In this document: piece by piece, positions 27,481 to 36,672 of the stretch
How the letters are laid out: each line of letters begins with the position of its first letter
Numbering within the stretch: the first letter of the stretch is position 1
Source: Escherichia phage JS10
Sequence record: EU863409
Strand: one strand, 5' to 3'
DNA: 64,000 nucleotides
The notes under the pieces: generated by a model
The model's database searches: none
Seen by the model: only the letters and a program-made list of their open reading frames with translations
What the model was told of the DNA's origin: nothing
Program-made: the position numbers and the translations under genes

Positions 27481-27969
27481 TTATCTATAAGCAGCCCAAG
27501 TACCTGTTTTAAAGGTGGCGATAACACGCTTGGCACGATTCGGGGTTTGCTTGTACCAACGAGACTGCGCCAGGTTAACTGCCGCATCGTCCCAACGTTT
27601 CTGTTGGAGCATACGTAAAGAGTTAGTGAACCCTGCCACACCTGCTTCACCCATTTGGAAGACCATATTAATCAATGCGCAACGACGAACTTCGTCCAAC
27701 ACATCATAAACCGGTTTCAATTTAGGATTGCGCATTATAGCTCTACGAGCATTTTCCACTGAACGATTAAAGAGTTGTTCAGCTTCAGCCATAGTAATAC
27801 GACCATTACAAACTCGACCCATAAGCTTATCAAGTTCAGCGCGAGCAACATCTTTAGATGGGTTCTTGGTAACTAACTGGCCAATACCAATAGTCCAATA
27901 ACCTTCGGTGTCTTTATAAAGGTTTAAATCAAGACCTTCGTCTTGACGTAACATATCAAAAATATCCAT
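27481..27969 (-). CDS. e: endolysin (T4 lysozyme, gene e)
   Basis: 162 aa; catalytic E11/D20-containing N-terminus [21 protein letters not shown]; matches T4 lysozyme. Confidence 0.92.
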
Positions 27970-27993: not shown

Positions 27994-28000
27994 ATTTATA
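27993..28000 (-). promoter_or_regulatory. T4-type late promoter (TATAAATA) for gene e
   Basis: Exact TATAAATA immediately 5' of a CCTCCT-N6-AGGAGG hairpin and the e start codon. Confidence 0.6.
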
Positions 28001-28450
28001 TCAAAAGAGTGAATCTAAAACCTTAAACATCGACGGGCCCATGACATATTCCCATTGCGGACGTTTAATCAAAGCGAAAGCGTCGAATTCCGGAATCGTA
28101 CGACCATCAGGGAACGTATGGTAAGCTGTACATTTGCAATTCTTGAACTGCTCGTGTTCGACAGGCACAGTATATAAGAACAGGTGTAGATTCTTATTGC
28201 TTGAATATTTGAACTCACCTAGGTCTTTCAGGAACGCAGGGTCATATGCTGTGAATCCAATCTCTTCTTCGGTTTCACGCATTGCCGCTTGAATAGGCTC
28301 TTCACCCGGTTCGACATGACCTTTAGGGATGTCCCATTTATGACGCATGTTCTCTGGATTACGAGAGCCTGTTACACGACCCATAACCAATTCTTTATCG
28401 GCGGTCATGAACAAAATACCAGCGGATAATTCTTTCGCTTTCTTACTCAT
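28001..28450 (-). CDS. nudE: Nudix hydrolase NudE
   Basis: Nudix box [22 protein letters not shown]; start at internal ATG 2 nt after upstream stop. Confidence 0.75.
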
Positions 28451-28679
28451 CGTCTCGTTCCCATGATTGTTTAAAGATATCTCGTATAATAATTTCAACA
28501 CACGTTTCTGTTGACGGACTTTCACTATCAGACACTTGAATCATATAATCAGAAATAGGTCGGAACATATCCAAGTCGCTTTCTAAATCTTCTTTGATTT
28601 TCTCTTCTGATGTTCCTGTGTCATAGGAATACAGATAAGAATCGCATGACTCGGATTTAATATAAATCGCAATACTCAT
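28443..28679 (-). CDS. hypothetical acidic protein
   Basis: 78-aa ORF; ATGA overlap. Confidence 0.45.
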   Translation of the reverse strand: MSIAIYIKSESCDSYLYSYDTGTSEEKIKEDLESDLDMFRPISDYMIQVSDSESPSTETCVEIIIRDIFKQSWERDDE

Positions 28680-29263
28680 TTACGGCATTCCTCAATAAAA
28701 GAATTTAATGTATTTTTCTTAGTGATATCGTCATACACCTTTTTAACTTTAGAAATACGAAAAGGTACTTCAATAACTGCAGTCCATAAAAATGATGCGA
28801 TAAGTCCTAAGATGGCCGCAGACATCGCTGAAGCGAATACACTAATGGGTAAGTCATTATCTGTTGTCAGGAAAAACCCTAGGAGTGGGAAAAATAATAT
28901 CCCCATCCAAACATAGAACCTAGAACTCACTAATTTGTCGTATTCATCACTCCATGTACGGAAGCCGTATTTTTTACTATAACAAATCAATGGGTCTGGT
29001 GTCTGTTCTTTATGGGGTTCTGGTTGCCAACCATTTACGATATAGCCCATTTTATATTCCTCAATTAAAAGTTGTTTCATTTCAGCAGTACAACCCGACC
29101 AATCTATTGTACTGGCTGAAATTCCTTCATCACCATCATCAATATTTCGCCAGGACTTTTTAATAATCATATTCTCACCACTTGGGATAATGATTCCGGC
29201 ATTTTCTGACCGACGGATGAAGTTTACATCAACACCCATGCAACCAGGTTCATAAAGGGCCAT
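28676..29263 (-). CDS. membrane protein with C-terminal FIEEC module
   Basis: 195 aa, two hydrophobic helices, ends NTLNSFIEECRK. Confidence 0.5.
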   Translation of the reverse strand: MALYEPGCMGVDVNFIRRSENAGIIIPSGENMIIKKSWRNIDDGDEGISASTIDWSGCTAEMKQLLIEEYKMGYIVNGWQPEPHKEQTPDPLICYSKKYGFRTWSDEYDKLVSSRFYVWMGILFFPLLGFFLTTDNDLPISVFASAMSAAILGLIASFLWTAVIEVPFRISKVKKVYDDITKKNTLNSFIEECRK

Positions 29264-29949
29264 TACCAGCCCTCCATAGGAAATTCCAGATATACTTGAG
29301 CATTAACACGGATTTCATTAGTAATCTTTTTAACACGGTCAGTATTACGAGAGACACGACCAAACCAGCGCCAACCGTTACTTACCGCACGAGAACCCGT
29401 ATGCCATGTCTGCCAATCAAACTGGAGCAATGTGCGGTCAGGAGCATCCCACTTGGTTAATTCATTGGACTCAATTTTTTCCAGAACTTCTTTATGCCAC
29501 TGGCGATAGATAAGTTCGCCTTCAGGAATCTGACTAAATTGCGCAGTTCCGGTTGCAAAATAAGTAGGACACACATCAGCGTTAACAAGACCAAGAATAT
29601 GTTCAGAATGGTATCGAGGATTATCATAATCAGGTTGGCCTGCGGTAATAAAGTGTTGACCCACCGGAATATCCGGACGTGGTACATCATCATGGTGATA
29701 ACCTGGGATAGCAGGATACCAACCAGGCATAAGCATATGAACTCGGGAATCAAATACAACCTGGTCGGTGTTCCACTCATCTGGCAGGTTCATAATGAAG
29801 CTGCGAGTAATAGGGCCACCATTATCAAAAGCGAAAGCCAATGAGCTGTTGAAGAACATAGTTTCGTTTTTGATTTTATCGTTAGAAATTTTACCGGCAA
29901 AACTACCCACTGCACGAGCTTGAGAATTAAAAGTTTTCGGGCTGTTCAT
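29263..29949 (-). CDS. hypothetical protein (228 aa)
   Basis: His/Trp-rich ORF, function not recognisable. Confidence 0.55.
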   Translation of the reverse strand: MNSPKTFNSQARAVGSFAGKISNDKIKNETMFFNSSLAFAFDNGGPITRSFIMNLPDEWNTDQVVFDSRVHMLMPGWYPAIPGYHHDDVPRPDIPVGQHFITAGQPDYDNPRYHSEHILGLVNADVCPTYFATGTAQFSQIPEGELIYRQWHKEVLEKIESNELTKWDAPDRTLLQFDWQTWHTGSRAVSNGWRWFGRVSRNTDRVKKITNEIRVNAQVYLEFPMEGW

Positions 29950-29963
29950 AATATTTTCCTCAA

Positions 29964-30176
29964 TTACTTTTTGTTGAAAAAGTACATTTTACCTTTAGGG
30001 GATAAGGATACACGAAGTGCGTTACCGATACCAACTGAACATTTAACCAGGTCAGCAGATTTCAATTCACCAAATGCTTGACGAAGGTCACCGTCACGAG
30101 TGTTAACCATCAGACATTTAGCACCAGCTGCACGAACTTCATTTAACATGTTGATTGCTTGGTTAGAAAGTTTCAT
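29964..30176 (-). CDS. hypothetical protein (70 aa)
   Basis: Start at ATG with GGAGAATAAA SD directly after PeSL-like cassette. Confidence 0.45.
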   Translation of the reverse strand: MKLSNQAINMLNEVRAAGAKCLMVNTRDGDLRQAFGELKSADLVKCSVGIGNALRVSLSPKGKMYFFNKK

Positions 30177-30242
30177 TTTATTCTCCATTTCACTCTGTTG
30201 TTTTGATAGGTCTATAGTATCACACCTATAGACCTTGTATAC
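30177..30242 (-). promoter_or_regulatory. PeSL-like promoter-stem-loop cassette (type with core-derived stem)
   Basis: -35 GTATAC, -10 TACTAT; perfect 10-bp stem AGGTCTATAG / CTATAGACCT (30208-30217 / 30226-30235). Confidence 0.55.
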
Positions 30243-30254
30243 TGTTTTATGCAA

Positions 30255-31214
30255 TTATTTTTCGAAAGGACGAATTAAATGTTGGTTAGCCTTGAAACGA
30301 TTAACATAGTCTTCGCGACCCAGGGTGTTATACATATTAACCACAGCTTGGTAGTTTTCCCAGGCATACTCACGGAACCATCCAGAAGTAATGGAGGTAC
30401 AGACTTTTTCCAGAGCAACATGGAAGCTCACGGATGGAGAGATATTGAACTCATTAGGAACCTGCGAACGCTCTAGAGCAAGTACACATGCTTCTTCATA
30501 TACGCCAGCCAGTTTAATAGCTTCAGGCAAAGCTTCAAACTTCTCACGTGAGGTCATGACTTCAGAACCATCTTTCATATAAAAGGTATACGCTGGGCGT
30601 CCAGCCAATGCCACAGCTTCATGGATAGAGTCATGGTCTAATGTATAAATGGTATCATTAAAGAACGATGATTTGTTTACATCCAATTTAGGATGAGAAT
30701 AGCTCAACGTTTCTTTCTGGCGTTGCAGCATGATTTCTTGGAGCTCTTCATTCAAGGTTACACCTTTATTACGAAGATATTTGATGTGGGACATCGTCTT
30801 CAAAAAGAACGGGTTGTTCTTCAAATAACGATGGCTCATTTTGATAGCCAGACAGATATCAGGCGTGGCCCAATAGAAACCAGTAAGACGATCCTTTTTA
30901 ATATGATTTTCAGCATATTTCAGGAGACGATAACTTGAGGTGAAATCTTCGTCCTGAAGCTCACCGGTAATTTCTCGTACGTTAGTCAGAGCACGGACAA
31001 TATAAGCTTCAAAATAGGTTTCTTTACCATTGTACATACATTTAAAGGCCTGGACATCTGGATTATCCACAGGGACATGGGCGCCGAACATCCGGGCTTT
31101 AAATTGATTCCATGAGCCTTGGTCGGCAATAAAATCCCAATCAGAATTTTCAATATACTTACTTTCAATCAGACCAGCGTGGTGCAGTGCACGAGAACCA
31201 ATAACTAGCATCAT
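30255..31214 (-). CDS. hypothetical protein (319 aa), possible nucleotidyltransferase-like N-terminus
   Basis: N-terminal IGSRAL...SDWDF weakly resembles a G-S...D-x-D fold motif; otherwise unassigned. Confidence 0.5.
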   Translation of the reverse strand: MMLVIGSRALHHAGLIESKYIENSDWDFIADQGSWNQFKARMFGAHVPVDNPDVQAFKCMYNGKETYFEAYIVRALTNVREITGELQDEDFTSSYRLLKYAENHIKKDRLTGFYWATPDICLAIKMSHRYLKNNPFFLKTMSHIKYLRNKGVTLNEELQEIMLQRQKETLSYSHPKLDVNKSSFFNDTIYTLDHDSIHEAVALAGRPAYTFYMKDGSEVMTSREKFEALPEAIKLAGVYEEACVLALERSQVPNEFNISPSVSFHVALEKVCTSITSGWFREYAWENYQAVVNMYNTLGREDYVNRFKANQHLIRPFEK

Positions 31215-31241
31215 AATATTTTCCTCATTAATAAAGACGAG

Positions 31242-31394
31242 TTACTTCATATTTACCCAGTTCAGATTTTTTGCTTCAATACGCGTTGCGGCTAGATTAG
31301 CAGCCTCTAGTGAAGAAAATTGAACCACTTGGGAAGTATTCTGCCTTACGCCACCTTGTGGGTGAGTAACAAAAACAATAAGAACATTATACAT
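31242..31394 (-). CDS. hypothetical small protein (50 aa)
   Basis: Unlisted ORF MYNVLIVFVTHPQGG...; GAGGAAAA SD; shares 16-nt initiation region with gene 30255..31214. Confidence 0.35.
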   Translation of the reverse strand: MYNVLIVFVTHPQGGVRQNTSQVVQFSSLEAANLAATRIEAKNLNWVNMK

Positions 31395-31415
31395 AATATT
31401 TTCCTCAGAGTAAAC

Positions 31416-31664
31416 TTAAATTTCAGCAACGTAATCGTTATGCAATTCCCACATATTATCAGAATTATTCTTAACGATAGGAATTATCTCATTAGAGATT
31501 TCTTCTGCATAAGGGTCATTGATACAGTGAGCATCTTCAAAACGAACACCGTAATCAGACTTCTTATAGGCAAAGCCATAAATCTTTTTAAACTTAGCAC
31601 GACTAATTCGTACCGGCTCATCAGACTTATCAGACTTATCAGACAGCGGAGAGTAATACCACAT
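31416..31664 (-). CDS. hypothetical protein
   Basis: 82 aa with SDKSDKSD from a 9-bp tandem repeat; GAGGAG SD. Confidence 0.45.
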   Translation of the reverse strand: MWYYSPLSDKSDKSDEPVRISRAKFKKIYGFAYKKSDYGVRFEDAHCINDPYAEEISNEIIPIVKNNSDNMWELHNDYVAEI

Positions 31665-31708
31665 AATGTTCTCCTCATGTTGGTGTACGGTAATAGTAAC
31701 ACGGTTTT

Positions 31709-32038
31709 CTAGAGTTGTACATCACTTCTACAATATTCTAAAAATAATTTATCGTTGTCTACTGTATCCCAACGTCGCCAAGATGGATTCCAGACCAAAG
31801 CGTTGTCACCACAATCATTGAGCTTAAAATGGTCATAGTACATGGCTATGTGTCTAGTCTCGTCACCAGAGAACCCTAGTATAGGCTCGCCGTGGGTATG
31901 ATACATATGGTGATGCATTGAGAGGTCGCATTTATAAAACATCTCACGTTTACCACGAATGAACAAGAAAGCTTGTCCATTCATATAGAATTCTTTATCC
32001 GTTTTCAAAAGGTATTTGAATACTGAATCTTTATGCAT
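31709..32038 (-). CDS. hypothetical His-rich protein
   Basis: Start at ATG with AGGAGG SD; HHHMYHTHGE metal-binding-like stretch. Confidence 0.5.
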   Translation of the reverse strand: MHKDSVFKYLLKTDKEFYMNGQAFLFIRGKREMFYKCDLSMHHHMYHTHGEPILGFSGDETRHIAMYYDHFKLNDCGDNALVWNPSWRRWDTVDNDKLFLEYCRSDVQL

Positions 32039-32068
32039 AAGTCCTCCTACCACATCCGTGTGGTTAAA

Positions 32069-32296
32069 TTATTTTCCTAACGAAATACGAGTAGGTTTTT
32101 TGCCAAAGTATTCTTCATAAGAACCATCTAAACGACCTGCTTTAGACCGACAATATGAATCATACTTTTTGTAATAGGTCATCTCAGTATTATAACGTGG
32201 ATGTCTATCAGCCATAATAATACTTAATGGCCAACCTTTGGCATACTCGCGAAGACCGTTTATTTTACGAATGTATCTTTTCTTTAATTTTAGCAT
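32069..32296 (-). CDS. hypothetical basic protein
   Basis: 75-aa Arg/Lys/Tyr-rich ORF. Confidence 0.45.
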   Translation of the reverse strand: MLKLKKRYIRKINGLREYAKGWPLSIIMADRHPRYNTEMTYYKKYDSYCRSKAGRLDGSYEEYFGKKPTRISLGK

Positions 32297-32514
32297 GAGC
32301 TCGGGTACCAGATTTTACCATCGGAACGAGCAACGAAGGTGCGACCAGCTTCTTCGCCGTAACAAGAGCTATTCAGCCAATCTTCAAGACGAACTTCACC
32401 ATCGTAATCGTCTAACTCAACACCAAAACTTTGAGCAGAAGCCATATCTTTTACTTTCTTATACAATGCAGCCAGTTCAAGAGCAGCTTTTTCTAATTCA
32501 TTAATATCAGTCAT
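32290..32514 (-). CDS. small acidic protein, W-x-S-S-C C-terminal family (copy 5)
   Basis: 74 aa ending WYPSSC; last of five tandem paralogs. Confidence 0.5.
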   Translation of the reverse strand: MTDINELEKAALELAALYKKVKDMASAQSFGVELDDYDGEVRLEDWLNSSCYGEEAGRTFVARSDGKIWYPSSC

Positions 32515-32526
32515 TTTTTTTATTCC

Positions 32527-32736
32527 TTAGCAAGACATAGAGGAGCTAAACCAGAAACCTTCACCATCTGGGATACCGTAATCATCACGGACCCATTCGT
32601 AATCATCATATTCCGGACTAGAAGCCGGAATATATTCTTCGCCACCAGCGTGGAAGTGCTGACCTGTTTCGTCAGCCACGGACTGGCCTTTACGTACTAA
32701 TTCACGGATTTGTTTTTCAATTTCATCAATAGTCAT
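32527..32736 (-). CDS. small acidic protein, W-x-S-S-S-x-x-C family (copy 4)
   Basis: 69 aa ending WFSSSMSC. Confidence 0.5.
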   Translation of the reverse strand: MTIDEIEKQIRELVRKGQSVADETGQHFHAGGEEYIPASSPEYDDYEWVRDDYGIPDGEGFWFSSSMSC

Positions 32737-32745
32737 TTTATTACC

Positions 32746-32943
32746 TTAGCATTCGTAAGAGGAGGACACCCAAGAGGTACCACTAATAGTAATACAACCG
32801 TTATAAAGCGTGATATGTCGTTCTAGGTCACGGACACCATCAATATAGATATCAGCTTCTTCGCGTTCTTCTTTACAAATTTGAATAACGTTTTCAATTG
32901 CTGCAGCGGCAGTTCGGATTGCACAATCTAATTCACGAGACAT
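32746..32943 (-). CDS. small acidic protein, W-x-S-S-S-x-x-C family (copy 3)
   Basis: 65 aa ending WVSSSYEC. Confidence 0.5.
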   Translation of the reverse strand: MSRELDCAIRTAAAAIENVIQICKEEREEADIYIDGVRDLERHITLYNGCITISGTSWVSSSYEC

Positions 32944-32952
32944 AATATTTCC

Positions 32953-33234
32953 TTAACATTCAGAAGAAGAGGACACCCAACCACCATTTTCCAGGTCAGT
33001 TGTATAGTCATGAGTATTAACAATAGCCCATTCAGGATGACCATCTTCTTCCCAATGGGCAAGGTCAGCTTTCAAGGCACCAGGAGAATAATAGTCACCG
33101 CCCATACCGCGAGCAGGGTATATATTAAAATGAGTCTCATATTTGTCTGCAATTTCCTCGGCACGACGAATAGCTTCATGAATTTCTTTTACTGCGGCCA
33201 GAAGCTCTGGGTTGTTATGATTATCATTCATCAT
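32953..33234 (-). CDS. small acidic protein, W-x-S-S-S-x-x-C family (copy 2)
   Basis: 93 aa ending WVSSSSEC; shares IADKY...GGDYY block with copy 1. Confidence 0.5.
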   Translation of the reverse strand: MMNDNHNNPELLAAVKEIHEAIRRAEEIADKYETHFNIYPARGMGGDYYSPGALKADLAHWEEDGHPEWAIVNTHDYTTDLENGGWVSSSSEC

Positions 33235-33243
33235 AGCTTTTCC

Positions 33244-33534
33244 TTAGCACATTGCCGAAGAGGAGACCCAGGCACCAACTGTAACGACACCGTTTTCAAC
33301 TTCACCGCCATTGTTTTCAATTTCATCTTTAAACCACTGGGAGCATTCATAACCAACAGGGTAGTATGTACGTCCTGAGCCATAATCACCTGTTCCGAAT
33401 TGAATACCATACTTATCGGCAATAGCTTCACATTTGTGTTCGATGGTATCCACTTTATTCAGAAGAGCATAGATAGCCTTTTCTGCAGATTTCTCGTCGT
33501 TGTATTCAGGGATTTCAATTTCAATTTTATTCAT
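33244..33534 (-). CDS. small acidic protein, W-x-S-S-S-x-x-C family (copy 1)
   Basis: 96 aa ending WVSSSAMC; ATGA overlap with upstream membrane protein gene. Confidence 0.5.
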   Translation of the reverse strand: MNKIEIEIPEYNDEKSAEKAIYALLNKVDTIEHKCEAIADKYGIQFGTGDYGSGRTYYPVGYECSQWFKDEIENNGGEVENGVVTVGAWVSSSAMC

Positions 33535-33884
33535 GATTTACATTCCTTAATAAAGGTTTCAAGGTCATTACGGTTGGTTTGTTTTACATACTCATTATAA
33601 TTAGCCATCTCTAAAGCATATCTCTTACGGATGGGGGCATTCAAAGCATTTGTATGGCAAATATCATACACGAGAGGGATAAAATAAGCCACGACAGCCG
33701 GAGCGATTATCATATAGAAACCCATCTCAATAGGCATGACTCCTTCGATTGCAGCCATAACTGTGGTCATTACCAGACCAACCAGACCGCCGAGCATACC
33801 GGTGACAATTCCCATAAATAAGGAAATAGCAATATCATATTCAGCCAATTGATAAACATGTGATGAAAGACTAGGCCGCTCCAT
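33531..33884 (-). CDS. membrane protein with C-terminal FIKEC module
   Basis: 117 aa from internal ATG with AAGAGG SD; two hydrophobic helices; ends NDLETFIKECKS. Confidence 0.5.
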   Translation of the reverse strand: MERPSLSSHVYQLAEYDIAISLFMGIVTGMLGGLVGLVMTTVMAAIEGVMPIEMGFYMIIAPAVVAYFIPLVYDICHTNALNAPIRKRYALEMANYNEYVKQTNRNDLETFIKECKS

Positions 33885-34413
33885 TTTGAACCTCTTTAGC
33901 GTATTCACGGCATTCTTTAATAAAACGATTAAGTTTACGTTGCTGTTTACGACTCTCTGATGTGTATTCGTTGGCTAAAATAATAAGCTCATCTTTATCG
34001 TAGTTTTTGATATCCGAATAACTCGGACGGCGGTCGACCATACCAAATACATCCCCATTTTCTAGTGCCACATAACATACTAAATGATAATCATCATCTG
34101 CAACATTAATATGTACACAGTCAGTACTCTCGTTTAAAGAATATACTGAATATCTCACTCCAGCGAATTTAGCACTCTGTATACCCAATCCAAGGTCAAT
34201 AATTTCTAAAGCTTCTGCAAAAGAAAGGTCTTCAGCTAAAGCAAAGATAAAGGGTAATTTGGTAGTATATCCACGTCTACTTGTTCGACTTAAGAAATCA
34301 TTGGAATAACCTAGGTCTTGGCGAATTCTATAAAGAACAGTATTAGTTTCATGGGAAAGACCACTATGTTTAAACCAGTCTACATTTGATATAAGGTCGG
34401 TATATAAGCTCAT
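33871..34413 (-). CDS. hypothetical protein with FIKEC module
   Basis: 180 aa; ...RKLNRFIKECREYAKEVQNGAA at C-terminus. Confidence 0.5.
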   Translation of the reverse strand: MSLYTDLISNVDWFKHSGLSHETNTVLYRIRQDLGYSNDFLSRTSRRGYTTKLPFIFALAEDLSFAEALEIIDLGLGIQSAKFAGVRYSVYSLNESTDCVHINVADDDYHLVCYVALENGDVFGMVDRRPSYSDIKNYDKDELIILANEYTSESRKQQRKLNRFIKECREYAKEVQNGAA

Positions 34414-34461
34414 AATATTCTCCTCTCCTCCAAATAGGGAGACCGAAGTCTCCCGGTAACA

Positions 34462-35055
34462 TTACTTAAGTGAATTAATGTAGTCGTCGATATCGGCAGA
34501 AGTCGTATCCATTCCAACTTGTGGGCCTTTAAACGTTTCTACACGTAGCAGGGTATCTTCAATATCAATCTTAGTCAGTGCAGCGATTTCAACCACATCA
34601 TCGGCAGTAGCAATACCAAGGGCAGCCATATTACGAGTTTCACGGATGTACTCGAGCTTAACAGCCAGTTCCTGACGAGAGTCATCAAGTTCCTTGACCT
34701 TCAGTTTAATTTCATTACGCATTTCGATATAATCGTCAGCTTTCTTACGAAGTTGAGTGGCTGTACGACGATAAAGGAGGCCGAGTTTAGCATGTACCTG
34801 AACATCGGCGCCTTCGGCAATCAGTTTACGAATTTCGCGTTCTTTAGAAGCAGCCAGTTGGTCTTTTTCATTTGCCAATGCACGAATGCGTTTTTCTTCA
34901 TTCACAGACTTAACATGAGCAGTCTGGAGTTCGGTAATTTTATCAATCAGGGTAGAAGCAGCTTTAGTATACTGGTCTTCGATTGACAGGTTCTGAGTCA
35001 TTGCGGTACCCAGTTTAGAACGGATGAACTCAACAATTTTCTTTAAAGTATTCAT
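34462..35055 (-). CDS. coiled-coil protein, possibly PspA/IM30-like
   Basis: 197 aa almost entirely heptad-like helices; start at ATG with AAGGAAA SD after a GTTTAC-N18-TATAAT promoter; homology assignment tentative. Confidence 0.5.
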
Positions 35056-35128
35056 AGTATTTCCTTCAGTCGGTTGGTATTTTGTAATCCATGAGGACAT
35101 TATACCCTGTCCTCTGAGGGTTGTAAAC
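35056..35128 (-). promoter_or_regulatory. sigma70-like early promoter with stem-loop over -10
   Basis: -35 GTTTAC (35123-35128), 18-bp spacer, -10 TATAAT (35099-35104) inside hairpin GAGGACA-N7-TGTCCTC. Confidence 0.5.
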
Positions 35129-35132
35129 ATTT

Positions 35133-35531
35133 TTATTTCATTTTGGCGAGGCAGATTTCATTGGCTTCCCATTGAGCTTGCTTAATAATAGCTTTGGATA
35201 CAGGAACCTTTTGACCATAAGTTTTTGACGTTGAGAGAACAATATATTTGTTTGCCTCATTATGCCAACCTAGTGATTTTTCACCATGACTACCTTTAAC
35301 CACAGCTGACACCTCAACAGAGCAACCACCATCAGAAATCTTGGTTTCTACAATCCATTCATTTCTCTCGGCAGCTTCAATTTCCGATCTCCTTTTTTCT
35401 TCATACATGGCGGCCCAATCAGTTTTTGCCAAGCTGAAAGTAAGAGCTTTCTCTAATTCTTTGGCAGCTTTTTGTTGTTCAGGCGTTAATGAATTGTACA
35501 ACTCTTGCATTTCTTTATCTTCGATATTCAT
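35133..35531 (-). CDS. hypothetical protein (132 aa)
   Basis: Start at ATG with GTGAAGGAG SD after PeSL-like cassette. Confidence 0.5.
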
Positions 35532-35595
35532 TATGCTCTCCTTCACTCCGTTGTTTTGATAGGTCTATAGTATCATATTCTACGAAAGAGTAAAC
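35532..35595 (-). promoter_or_regulatory. PeSL-like promoter cassette
   Basis: core TTGATAGGTCTATAGTATCA; -35 GTTTAC (35590-35595); hairpin degenerate. Confidence 0.5.
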
Positions 35596-35618
35596 ATCTT
35601 TTTTAAACTTTTAGAAAC

Positions 35619-35646
35619 AAAAAAGGCCCAACCTTTCGGAAGGGCC
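35619..35646 (-). terminator. intrinsic terminator
   Basis: GGCCC...GAAA...GGGCC hairpin plus U6; identical sequence repeated at 36242..36270. Confidence 0.55.
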
Positions 35647-35651
35647 TCGAA

Positions 35652-36206
35652 TCAGTTCTTGTAGAACCGGAATGGGTTCACGTGGAAGGCTAACATAGCT
35701 TTAGGGATTTTACGAGACAAAAGGCTCTTAAGCTTCCAGCCACAGTAAACGCGAAGGTAAAATGTGATTCCGCCGACCTTAAGATAAGGAACTGAAGCAA
35801 ATACACCCCAGGCATCATCATTCCACATCCACAACCAACCATGGTGGGCTTTATCAGGAGAACCTGATTCTACGTCAGGATTACCACGATAATGGAATTC
35901 CGAGCTACAATCACGGCCTAGTTTATGATAAGCAAAGTTATAAGCTTTATTTCGCCATAGCCAAGCTACTCTCTGGAGATAAACACCGCCAGGCATTTTC
36001 CTGATTTTAGCCCAACGTTTAATATGACCTTTATCGCCGTCAATTGGATTATCGTATGTCATCATCCAATCAAAACCATATGGCAATTTACCAGTCTTTT
36101 TATTATGAAAAGGAACCACAAAAGGCGCAAGGATAACGGCTAGAACCATAGAGATAAAATCTAGTGGGACCAACAGAATCCAACTCAAATATTTTAAAAG
36201 TTTCAT
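35652..36206 (-). CDS. membrane-anchored protein (184 aa), late-promoter driven
   Basis: N-terminal signal-anchor helix; TATAAATA 27 nt upstream; flanked by identical terminator hairpins. Confidence 0.5.
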   Translation of the reverse strand: MKLLKYLSWILLVPLDFISMVLAVILAPFVVPFHNKKTGKLPYGFDWMMTYDNPIDGDKGHIKRWAKIRKMPGGVYLQRVAWLWRNKAYNFAYHKLGRDCSSEFHYRGNPDVESGSPDKAHHGWLWMWNDDAWGVFASVPYLKVGGITFYLRVYCGWKLKSLLSRKIPKAMLAFHVNPFRFYKN

Positions 36207-36232
36207 ATTATTTCCTAAGTTAGTTTACTGTA

Positions 36233-36240
36233 TATTTATA
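36233..36240 (-). promoter_or_regulatory. T4-type late promoter (TATAAATA)
   Basis: Exact TATAAATA 27 nt upstream of gene 35652..36206, just downstream of a terminator. Confidence 0.5.
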
Positions 36241-36241
36241 C

Positions 36242-36270
36242 AAAAAAGGCCCAACCTTTCGGAAGGGCCT
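36242..36270 (-). terminator. intrinsic terminator after tRNA/sRNA cluster
   Basis: Same 29-bp hairpin plus U6 as at 35619..35646. Confidence 0.55.
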
Positions 36271-36279
36271 TTAACCTAG

Positions 36280-36439
36280 GGTAGCCTTGTCGGGGTTCCA
36301 CCTGCTAGGCAAGTGTTCTGTGCGCCGTTTCAGCTGTGAGATAAGGGACTTTAAGAGGAACTCATGTACTCCTTAAAGTCGGGTCTTATTCAGGGAACTT
36401 CAGTCCGACGACTTACCGGTAGCGACCCGGTTTCTTGTT
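36280..36439 (-). ncRNA. candidate structured small RNA adjacent to tRNA cluster
   Basis: About 160 nt non-coding, GC-rich inverted repeats (e.g. CTTTAAG...CTTAAAG), between tRNA-Arg and a terminator; no tRNA cloverleaf found; analogous position to T4 species 1/2 RNAs. Confidence 0.25.
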
Positions 36440-36515
36440 TGGTCGAGACAGTAGGGATCGAACCTACGACCTACGGTTTAGAAGACCGTTGCTCTTCCTT
36501 CTGAGCTATGCCTCG
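36440..36515 (-). tRNA. tRNA-Arg (anticodon UCU)
   Basis: 76-nt cloverleaf: anticodon stem ACGGT/ACCGT with loop CTTCTAA, T-arm GTAGG-TTCGATC-CCTAC, encoded CCA; unusual C1-G72 acceptor start. Confidence 0.65.
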
Positions 36516-36519
36516 TATT

Positions 36520-36594
36520 TGGCGGACATGCATGGATTCGAACCATGGACCAATTGATTAACAGTCAACTGCTCTACCACTGAGCTACACATCC
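36520..36594 (-). tRNA. tRNA-Asn (anticodon GUU)
   Basis: 75-nt cloverleaf: D-arm TAGCTCAGTGGTAGAGC, anticodon loop CTGTTAA, T-arm CATGG-TTCGAAT-CCATG, encoded CCA. Confidence 0.75.
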
Positions 36595-36598
36595 AAAT

Positions 36599-36672
36599 TG
36601 GTGGCCCTGGGTGGAATCGAACCACCATCCAGCGATTATGAGTCGCTCGCTTGACCGTCCAGCTACAGGGCC
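36599..36672 (-). tRNA. tRNA-Met/Ile2 (anticodon CAU)
   Basis: 74-nt cloverleaf: acceptor GGCCCTG/CAGGGCC, anticodon stem AGCGA/TCGCT with loop CTCATAA, T-arm GGTGG-TTCGATT-CCACC, encoded CCA. Confidence 0.75.

Follow-up and report, generated by a model that had tools for sequence, protein, structure and literature searches.

Three genes of a T4-type phage end in the same short peptide, and the question is whether this peptide is kept for what it does in the proteins or for what its codons do in the DNA and RNA. The genes lie on the minus strand of the stretch analysed here, 64,000 nucleotides (nt) of Escherichia phage JS10 (record EU863409; hereafter the window), and encode proteins of 180, 117 and 195 amino acids (aa), each closing on a tail built around F-I-(K/E)-E-C. 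A reading made from the sequence alone had noticed this tail and offered two explanations, a shared protein module or a coding junction element serving as a translational-coupling signal and recombination linker. Both found support in our analysis, in layers: the conserved protein tail comes first, the overlapping ribosome-binding region second, and the role as a recombination boundary is incidental. Judging from sequence comparison, we think it rather likely that the tail is a cytoplasmic amphipathic docking helix of a co-translated early gene set, on which a translation-initiation signal is overlaid.

A shared C-terminal tail in the window

The 180-aa, 117-aa and 195-aa translations end in ...RKLNRFIKECREYAKEVQNGAA-stop, ...NDLETFIKECKS-stop and ...NTLNSFIEECRK-stop, respectively. 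The pattern F[IV][KE]EC occurs exactly three times in the six frames of the window, each time at the 3' end of one of these genes, as compared to a mean of 0.05 and a maximum of 1 after shuffling of the residues (Poisson P for at least three occurrences, ~2e-5). A looser pattern, [LM]xxF[IV]x[ED]C, was likewise observed three times against 0.2 expected. The distance from the Phe codon to the next gene start is 20, 20 and 40 nt, within the ~40 nt originally noted. The proposal that two of the three carriers are membrane proteins also held, since hydropathy revealed a pair of hydrophobic spans in both the 117-aa and the 195-aa protein, and no such span in the 180-aa one. The motif had been written with an N-x-L start; its core is present in all three tails, but the Asn at position -5 is not found in the 180-aa protein. 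At the DNA level, the likeness among the three sites is limited to ~14-17 nt with mismatches (TTTATTRARGAATGY). The coordinates of the genes, motifs and initiation regions are given in Table 1.

Table 1. Tail-bearing genes, tail motifs and overlapping initiation regions in the window (SD, Shine-Dalgarno sequence)
Feature	Position	Strand	Description
e.5-like gene (JS98 orf131 equivalent)	33871-34413	-	180 aa, soluble; tail helix ~ residues 153-179
e.3-like gene (JS98 orf130 equivalent)	33531-33884	-	117 aa; hydrophobic spans ~17-46 and ~51-77, then basic stretch and tail
e.2 homologue	28676-29263	-	195 aa; soluble N-domain, hydrophobic spans ~116-134 and ~137-168, basic stretch, tail
e.5-like tail motif L-N-R-F-I-K-E-C-R	33907-33933	-	lies 10 residues ahead of the stop; does not serve as SD for the next gene
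e.3-like tail motif L-E-T-F-I-K-E-C-K	33537-33563	-	invariant in 18 family members, down to 39% identity
e.2 tail motif L-N-S-F-I-E-E-C-R-K	28679-28708	-	L, N, F, I, E, C, R and K unchanged across 15 sequences (identity as low as 46%)
e.3-like initiation region within the e.5-like 3' end	33882-33897	-	AAAGAGG, 6 nt (TTCAAA), ATG; copy of the repeated junction GRGGTTCRWAATG
Initiation region of the first small-array gene	33532-33548	-	SD AAGGAA (motif K-E codons), 8-nt spacer TGTAAATC, ATG; stop/start overlap ATGA
Initiation region of the 78-aa gene	28677-28693	-	SD GAGGAA (motif E-E codons), 7-nt spacer TGCCGTA, ATG; ATGA overlap

Identities of the three carrier proteins

Megablast of positions 28000-36300 identified JS98-like T4-type phages (Dhakavirus) at 91-96% identity across almost the whole length. 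In the JS98 annotation, the order along the minus strand is e.6, orf131, orf130, several small open reading frames (ORFs), e.2, a 78-aa ORF, nudE and e, and tRNA genes lie directly upstream of the cluster in the window (36440-36672). In T4, the same site between e.6 and nudE/e is occupied by e.2-e.5 (UniProt Y06M/Y06N/Y06O/Y06P), with the same order, sizes, tail and architecture of two transmembrane (TM) segments. The precomputed Pfam families Phage_T4_Y06M (PF26896, e.2), Phage_T4_Y06O (PF26873, e.4) and Phage_T4_Y06P (PF26876, e.5) are all separate. As compared to T4, the window lineage is without e.4, has 4.3 kb of inserted sequence (five small paralogues plus other genes) separating e.2 from the e.3-like gene, and has ~31 extra N-terminal residues in e.2.

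The window e.2 aligns with T6 e.2 over 165 aa (BLASTP E = 2.5e-24) and matches phrog_2203 (E = 5e-71), and its homologues are assigned to PF26896 in precomputed Pfam. It is followed by the 78-aa gene, which is also present in Mosigvirus and in the metagenomic sequence L016 (L numbers are our handles for the comparison sequences), and then by nudE (28001-28525) and the lysozyme gene (27481-27969). The e.3-like protein aligns with T6 e.3 over its full length (BLASTP E = 1e-10, 121 columns) and matches phrog_2330 (E = 1e-46) and, weakly, the e.2 family phrog_2203, while its similarity to e.4 was not significant (E = 0.065). The e.2 and e.3-like proteins also resemble each other through TM1, TM2 and the tail (BLASTP E = 1e-4 over 106 aa). 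Because of this similarity and the weak match to the e.2 PHROG, the two membrane proteins are probably old tandem paralogues. The carriers had been called otherwise unrelated, a description that fits the body of the e.5-like protein but not these two; all three are counterparts of neighbouring T4 genes (e.3, e.2 and, probably, e.5).

The 180-aa protein belongs to phrog_8788 (E = 8e-114), and direct BLASTP against T4 and T6 e.5 aligned only its 15-aa tail (E = 4e-4). A 176-aa protein from L016 matches both the window protein (E = 6e-20) and T4/T6 e.5 (E = 3e-5 over 67-136 aa), and hhalign between the e.5-like and e.5 families aligned 102 columns (E = 2e-5, probability 76%). Given this bridge, the profile alignment and the position of the gene directly after the e.6 homologue, as in T4, the 180-aa protein is probably a diverged e.5. 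In view of the bridging homologue and the hhalign alignment, we dropped the idea that an unrelated gene had been swapped in behind a kept tail.

Scans of the three proteins and of the downstream small-gene array against Pfam (a set without the PF26896 model) and NCBIfam gave nothing significant. A Ribosomal_S18 match on the tail (E = 0.006) fell short of the cut-off, and sequence searches of the PDB with the family profiles returned no relatives.

Recurrence of the tail in related phages

The recurrence of the motif at gene 3' ends in related genomes was borne out. The same tail closes adjacent e.5, e.4, e.3 and e.2 genes in T6, T4, Mosigvirus APCEc01 (L020), the Gaprivervirus-type sequences L007, L008 and L011, and L016 (Table 2). 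The consensus can be written hydrophobic(-3)-x-x-F-[IV]-x-[E/D/G]-[C, or V/S/I in e.4]-R, and in every orthologue family no other part of the protein is as well conserved as the tail. The e.2 gene itself is present in ~675 genomes. Between families, hhalign aligns the tail alone (13-25 residues, E = 2e-5 to 1e-3).

Table 2. Tails of the e.5, e.4, e.3 and e.2 proteins in related phages
Phage	e.5	e.4	e.3	e.2
T6/T4	...LEKFVKECREYVK...	...IMKFVKESRCKSQ(N/S)-stop	...MKEFV(S/I)DCRKIK-stop	...LNNFITECRKLK-stop
Mosigvirus APCEc01	FIMECREYVK	FVKEIRC	FIKECRK-stop	FITECRNLR-stop
Gaprivervirus-type L007	...LNRFIKECREYAKGV...	...AEEFIKEVRNGTA-stop	...LETFIKECKS-stop	...LNSFIEECRK-stop
Metagenomic L016	RLDRFIKECRD	EEFILEVRHAKA-stop	FESFIKECKS-stop	FNEFIKGCRK-stop

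When a 39-column profile of the tail was compared with 1.84 billion cluster representatives, seven clusters were retrieved at E<=1e-3, all of them e.2-, e.3- or e.5-like or a fusion of such genes. At the level of sequence, the tail thus appears to be confined to this phage group and not to be a widespread module. Annotations have treated e.2-e.5 as hypothetical genes ever since the sequencing of the T4 genome, and our search of the literature on e.2-e.5 or Y06M-P found nothing relevant and no description of a shared tail.

Peptide constraint and an embedded Shine-Dalgarno sequence

Across paralogues and four genera, the tail core is conserved at the protein level, and its codons change while the residues stay: CGT, AGA, AGG and CGA for Arg, ATT, ATC, GTT and GTG for Ile/Val, TGC and TGT for Cys, and TTT and TTC for Phe. 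In the e.5-like orthologues, the pairwise synonymous difference within the motif amounts to 0.56 for C, 0.56 for R and 0.36 for Y, and x is K, A or T. Purifying selection on the tail thus acts at the protein level. The tail is also ancient.

A second constraint is superimposed at the end of the tail. Translational coupling via an SD in the last codons of the upstream gene, with ATGA overlaps, is common in T4 and other tightly packed phage operons. By sequence, the window junctions fit this layout, with GAGGAA-7 nt-ATG(A), AAGGAA-8 nt-ATG(A) and AAAGAGG-6 nt-ATG. They resemble coupled cistrons in their ATGA overlaps, in the RAGGAA or AGGAAA placed in tail codons 5-10 nt before the next ATG, and in their reduced synonymous variation. 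Unlike the usual embedded SD, this one lies inside a peptide motif that is conserved across paralogues, and the residue x is effectively set by the RNA signal. AGGAA or GAGGAA had been reported within the motif codons of all three genes, which is true of two of them; the 180-aa gene has AAAGAA instead, and its downstream neighbour uses a separate AAAGAGG.

In all genes whose x-E codons lie 5-10 nt before the next ATG, x is K or E and the codons read RAGGAA (e.2 and e.3-like in the window, e.5 and e.4 in T6, e.3 and e.4 in Mosigvirus, and the e.5-like gene of L016). Where the R-K codons (AGGAAA) or another string provide the SD, x is T, S, A, M or L, or K in some e.5-like alleles, including that of the window. 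For instance, e.2 and e.3 of T6/T4 use the AGGAAA of the R-K codons and have T or S at x, while e.5-like alleles with the separate AAAGAGG have K, A or T. The e.4-like genes have Val in place of the Cys, coded GAG GTG or GAG GTT, which yields GGAGGT.

The SD overlay accounts both for K or E at x before the next start and for the suppression of synonymous change in the tails. The last 13 codons of the e.3-like gene showed zero synonymous change in 10 genomes, as compared to 0.19 in the gene body. Among same-residue pairs, synonymous divergence in the last 7-13 codons was 0.016-0.026 for e.3-like, lower than in any other window of that gene, and 0.11-0.16 for e.2, within the lowest 4-8% of windows, against 0.25-0.29 overall. 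The 21-nt sequence ATTAAGGAATGTAAATCATGA at the e.3-like end is identical even in L016, whose protein is 39% identical, and the sole change seen in the embedded SD of e.2 orthologues is GAG to AAG, which keeps the SD. Stops and starts overlap in this tightly packed set, so that the last codons of every tail also serve as SD and spacer for the following cistron.

RNA folds at the three junctions were no more stable than those of shuffled sequences (z = +1.0, -0.5 and +1.5). Hairpins in which motif codons would sequester the SD (AUUCUUU/GAGGAAU in e.2; CCUUGA/UUAAGG in e.3-like) were rejected as folding no better than shuffles, and by eye the T6 tails, which were not folded, contain no comparable complementary stretch.

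At 33906-33908, a GTG in the e.3-like frame stands 8 codons before the annotated ATG and 4 nt past the motif AAAGAA; in an alignment of the e.5 tail, it is located two codons upstream of the T6 e.4 start. This GTG is probably not used as a start, because the ATG at 33884 has a better SD.

Hypervariable transmembrane cassettes and gene loss

The conserved tails and junctions edge hypervariable TM cassettes and a gene-deletion endpoint. Between the window e.2 and those of L009 and L010, nucleotide identity is 90-100% up to about codon 75, drops to 30-40% through the TM region, and exceeds 90% again from about codon 186, at the tail. The e.3-like gene behaves alike as compared to L005 and L009, with 100% identity resuming ~29 codons before the stop.

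The TM region of e.2 (28760-29040, codons ~75-168; 7225-7560 in L009/L010) exists as at least two unalignable alleles with 30-40% nucleotide identity, located between a near-identical N-domain and an identical tail, and a like pattern is seen in the e.3-like gene. Such alleles suggest diversifying selection or cassette exchange on the membrane-embedded parts.

An e.4-like gene, not present in the window, lies between the e.5-like and e.3-like genes in L007, L008, L011 and L016. In L007 this gene is flanked by direct copies of the 13-nt SD-spacer-ATG junction GRGGTTCRWAATG, two copies of which also surround it in L008 and L011, whereas the window has a single copy. The end of the window e.5-like protein, ...AKEVQNGAA-stop, is a chimera of the L007 e.5-like tail (...AKGVQNANVISAR-stop) and the e.4-like end (...EVRNGTA-stop). 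Since T4, T6, Mosigvirus and L016 all have e.4, its absence reflects a deletion in the Dhakavirus lineage.

Two further rearrangements affect the same genes elsewhere. In OP555981.1 (L015, 3001-3321, UFV05-type), the N-terminus of e.4 is fused in frame to the TM region and tail of e.2, giving a 106-aa protein with Pfam matches to both Y06O and Y06M. The fusion is present in five complete UFV05-type genomes, is joined inside TM1, and goes along with deletion of e.3 and the e.2 N-domain. In the T4 reference (NC_000866, L019; 1481-1975, minus strand), e.2 is annotated with only 102 aa and the frame shifts from 2 to 1 to 2, while TM2 and the tail ...IEMPWRLRRQQKIFDEKKYAQNLNNFITECRK are still readable in the original frame; the T6 gene is intact (162 aa). 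The T4 reference e.2 is either a lab-strain pseudogene or the product of old sequencing errors.

In T4-type genomes, modules of the hyperplastic regions are shuffled by means of promoter-early stem-loop (PeSL) cassettes (Arbiol et al. 2010, PMC2839356; Comeau et al. 2014, PMC4122927). Like PeSLs, the window tails and junctions are short conserved boundary sequences in a variable region, located at endpoints of insertion, deletion or replacement. Unlike PeSLs, which consist of an intergenic promoter and terminator, the window junctions are coding, overlapping, only 13-17 nt long and devoid of promoter or stem-loop, and they imply neither mini-circles nor promoter activity. The PeSL arrangement of a sigma-70-like early promoter and a stem-loop terminator in an intergenic spacer was not found at these junctions.

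Predicted structure and possible function of the tail

Whether the motif belongs to a predicted structural element had been raised as a check; the protein tail is predicted to be helical. Hydrophobic residues at -3, 0, +1 and +4 give an amphipathic helix (hydrophobic moment muH 0.3-0.7). AlphaFold modelled e.2 with a TM helix at 105-133 and one long helix at 140-194 running from TM2 through the tail (predicted local distance difference test, pLDDT, ~60-80), leaving the N-domain unresolved. Because a basic stretch follows TM2, the positive-inside rule would place the tail in the cytoplasm.

Conservation, amphipathicity, cytoplasmic placement and co-expression in an operon together lead us to propose a docking helix. 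The carriers, soluble e.5 and the two-pass inner-membrane proteins e.4, e.3 and e.2, are products of a conserved cluster of T4-type genes that are early and non-essential. At the end of each, the motif would be the central part of a short amphipathic helix in the cytoplasm, which would serve as a docking or oligomerisation element. The helix could tie the co-translated proteins together, bringing soluble e.5 onto the membrane proteins, or link all of them to a single shared partner on the cytoplasmic side of the inner membrane. We take the recombination role to be a by-product of conservation and not a selected function.

Several points weigh against this proposal. The AlphaFold models are weak (pLDDT 59 overall for e.2, and 40, which is unusable, for the e.5-like family). 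The Cys is not universal, as e.4 lineages have V, S or I in its place, with the Cys moved by two residues or gone. The codon statistics come from 10-12 related genomes that are not independent, and the full nucleotide invariance of the e.3-like tail could alternatively reflect recent recombinational homogenisation. Gene loss is also tolerated: the window lacks e.4, the phages with the e.4::e.2 fusion lack e.3, and the T4 record has a frameshifted e.2. As e.2, e.3 and e.4 are each lost or broken in some phages, an obligatory four-part complex is unlikely.

A bolder version is improbable in our estimation but can be stated. The four tails might be the assembly code of an unrecognised early T4 inner-membrane complex, in which e.2, e.3, e.4 and e.5 would be bundled via their C-terminal helices, possibly share a metal or redox site through one Cys each, and present their hypervariable TM cassettes to host membrane targets or exclusion/defence functions.

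What is new here is an undescribed link between known hypothetical genes, and not a new kind of element. The well-conserved cytoplasmic tail that e.2-e.5 have in common joins these genes, three of them (e.2, e.4 and e.5) filed as separate families, into one probable functional unit and offers a concrete handle for finding their partner or partners. The locus is also a clear natural example of codons contested by a peptide motif and a ribosome-binding site, and of hypervariable membrane cassettes bounded by conserved gene ends. Its value lies in annotation and hypothesis-building for T4-type phages.

Alternative explanations for the shared tail

A motif of 5-10 residues is short enough to arise by chance, but three occurrences against 0.05 expected, all C-terminal and conserved in four genera, refute a coincidental match of short peptides, to which we assign next to no probability. 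It is also quite doubtful that the tail is a peptide module with a mobility of its own, picked up by unrelated proteins in various phages. Although profile-profile comparison between the families aligns the tail alone and the e.5 body is unrelated to the membrane proteins, all seven clusters retrieved from the 1.84 billion representatives belong to this gene set or a fusion of it. Moreover, the tail is always carried by one set of neighbouring genes in an unchanged order, and the weak similarity of e.2 and e.3-like through TM1, TM2 and tail fits old tandem paralogy and not capture. Alternatively, the element could be purely nucleic-acid, an SD, spacer and start or a coupling signal for the next gene, with the peptide only its read-out. 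RAGGAA within the motif 5-10 nt from the next start in most cases, the suppressed synonymous change, the invariant 21 nt in a distant relative and the stereotyped initiation regions common in this region all fit such an element. However, the SD explains two codons only, while L/M(-3), F, I/V, C and R are kept as their codons change, even across Arg codon families. The e.5-like motif lies 26 nt upstream of the next start and is not an SD, yet it is conserved with synonymous variation, and T6 e.2 and e.3 retain F-[IV]-x-[ED]-C with the SD shifted to the R-K codons. Together with the unremarkable folding of the junction RNAs, these observations make a purely nucleic-acid element improbable.

The tail might instead be mainly a recombination linker, kept for swapping, losing and gaining TM cassettes or genes, as a coding analogue of PeSL cassettes. 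This is unlikely on present evidence, even if the drop in identity over the TM regions and its return at about the tail (e.2) or the last 29 codons (e.3-like), the e.4-like loss with endpoints in direct repeats and a chimeric e.5-like C-terminus, and the documented PeSL-mediated shuffling (PMC2839356) lend it some weight. The paralogue tails share only their short mismatched stretch, with no direct repeat of at least 16 nt there, the deletion endpoints lie in the SD-spacer-ATG repeat and not in the FIKEC codons, and the natural e.4::e.2 fusion is joined inside TM1 and not at the tail. In addition, breakpoints cluster at any conserved block beside a diverging one, and selection for future recombination is a weak evolutionary explanation. 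The docking helix with an overlaid initiation signal remains the explanation that we favour.

Neighbouring features

Downstream of the e.3-like gene, a small-gene array (32290-33534, minus strand) comprises five tandem paralogues of 96, 93, 65, 69 and 74 aa, assigned to phrog_899 and, for one of them, phrog_4882. The array also follows the e.3-like gene in Mosigvirus APCEc01 and L016. The sequence-only reading had likened its gene ends to the tail; they do read -MC/-EC/-EC/-SC/-SC and are followed by TAAGGAA-type SDs, but they belong to another family with the tail W-V-S-S-S-x-x-C. Four members end in W-[VF]-S-S-S-x-x-C-stop and one in YPSSC-stop, and in the four upstream members a TAAGG(A/T)A-type SD, serving the next array gene, comes after the stop.

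Further upstream, the 31-nt sequence ACAAAAAAGGCCCAACCTTTCGGAAGGGCCT, which resembles a terminator (GC hairpin and T-run on the minus strand), occurs in two identical copies at 35617-35647 and 36240-36270, on either side of a 184-aa membrane-protein ORF (35652-36206). Because the JS98 match ends at ~35543, this ORF has the appearance of a cassette that was inserted or swapped between copies of a stem-loop, in the manner of a PeSL. A 45-nt direct repeat with 89% identity (30178-30222 and 35531-35575) forms the leader and start of two unrelated minus-strand genes (...TGATACTATAGACCTATCAAAACAAC...GGAG...ATG) and may be a shared promoter or leader. Finally, the 17-nt initiation region TGAGGAAAATATTATGA is present on the minus strand in six copies (29946, 31211, 31391, 31661, 34410 and 35052), so that one SD-spacer-ATG string, nearly unchanged, recurs at gene starts in this region.

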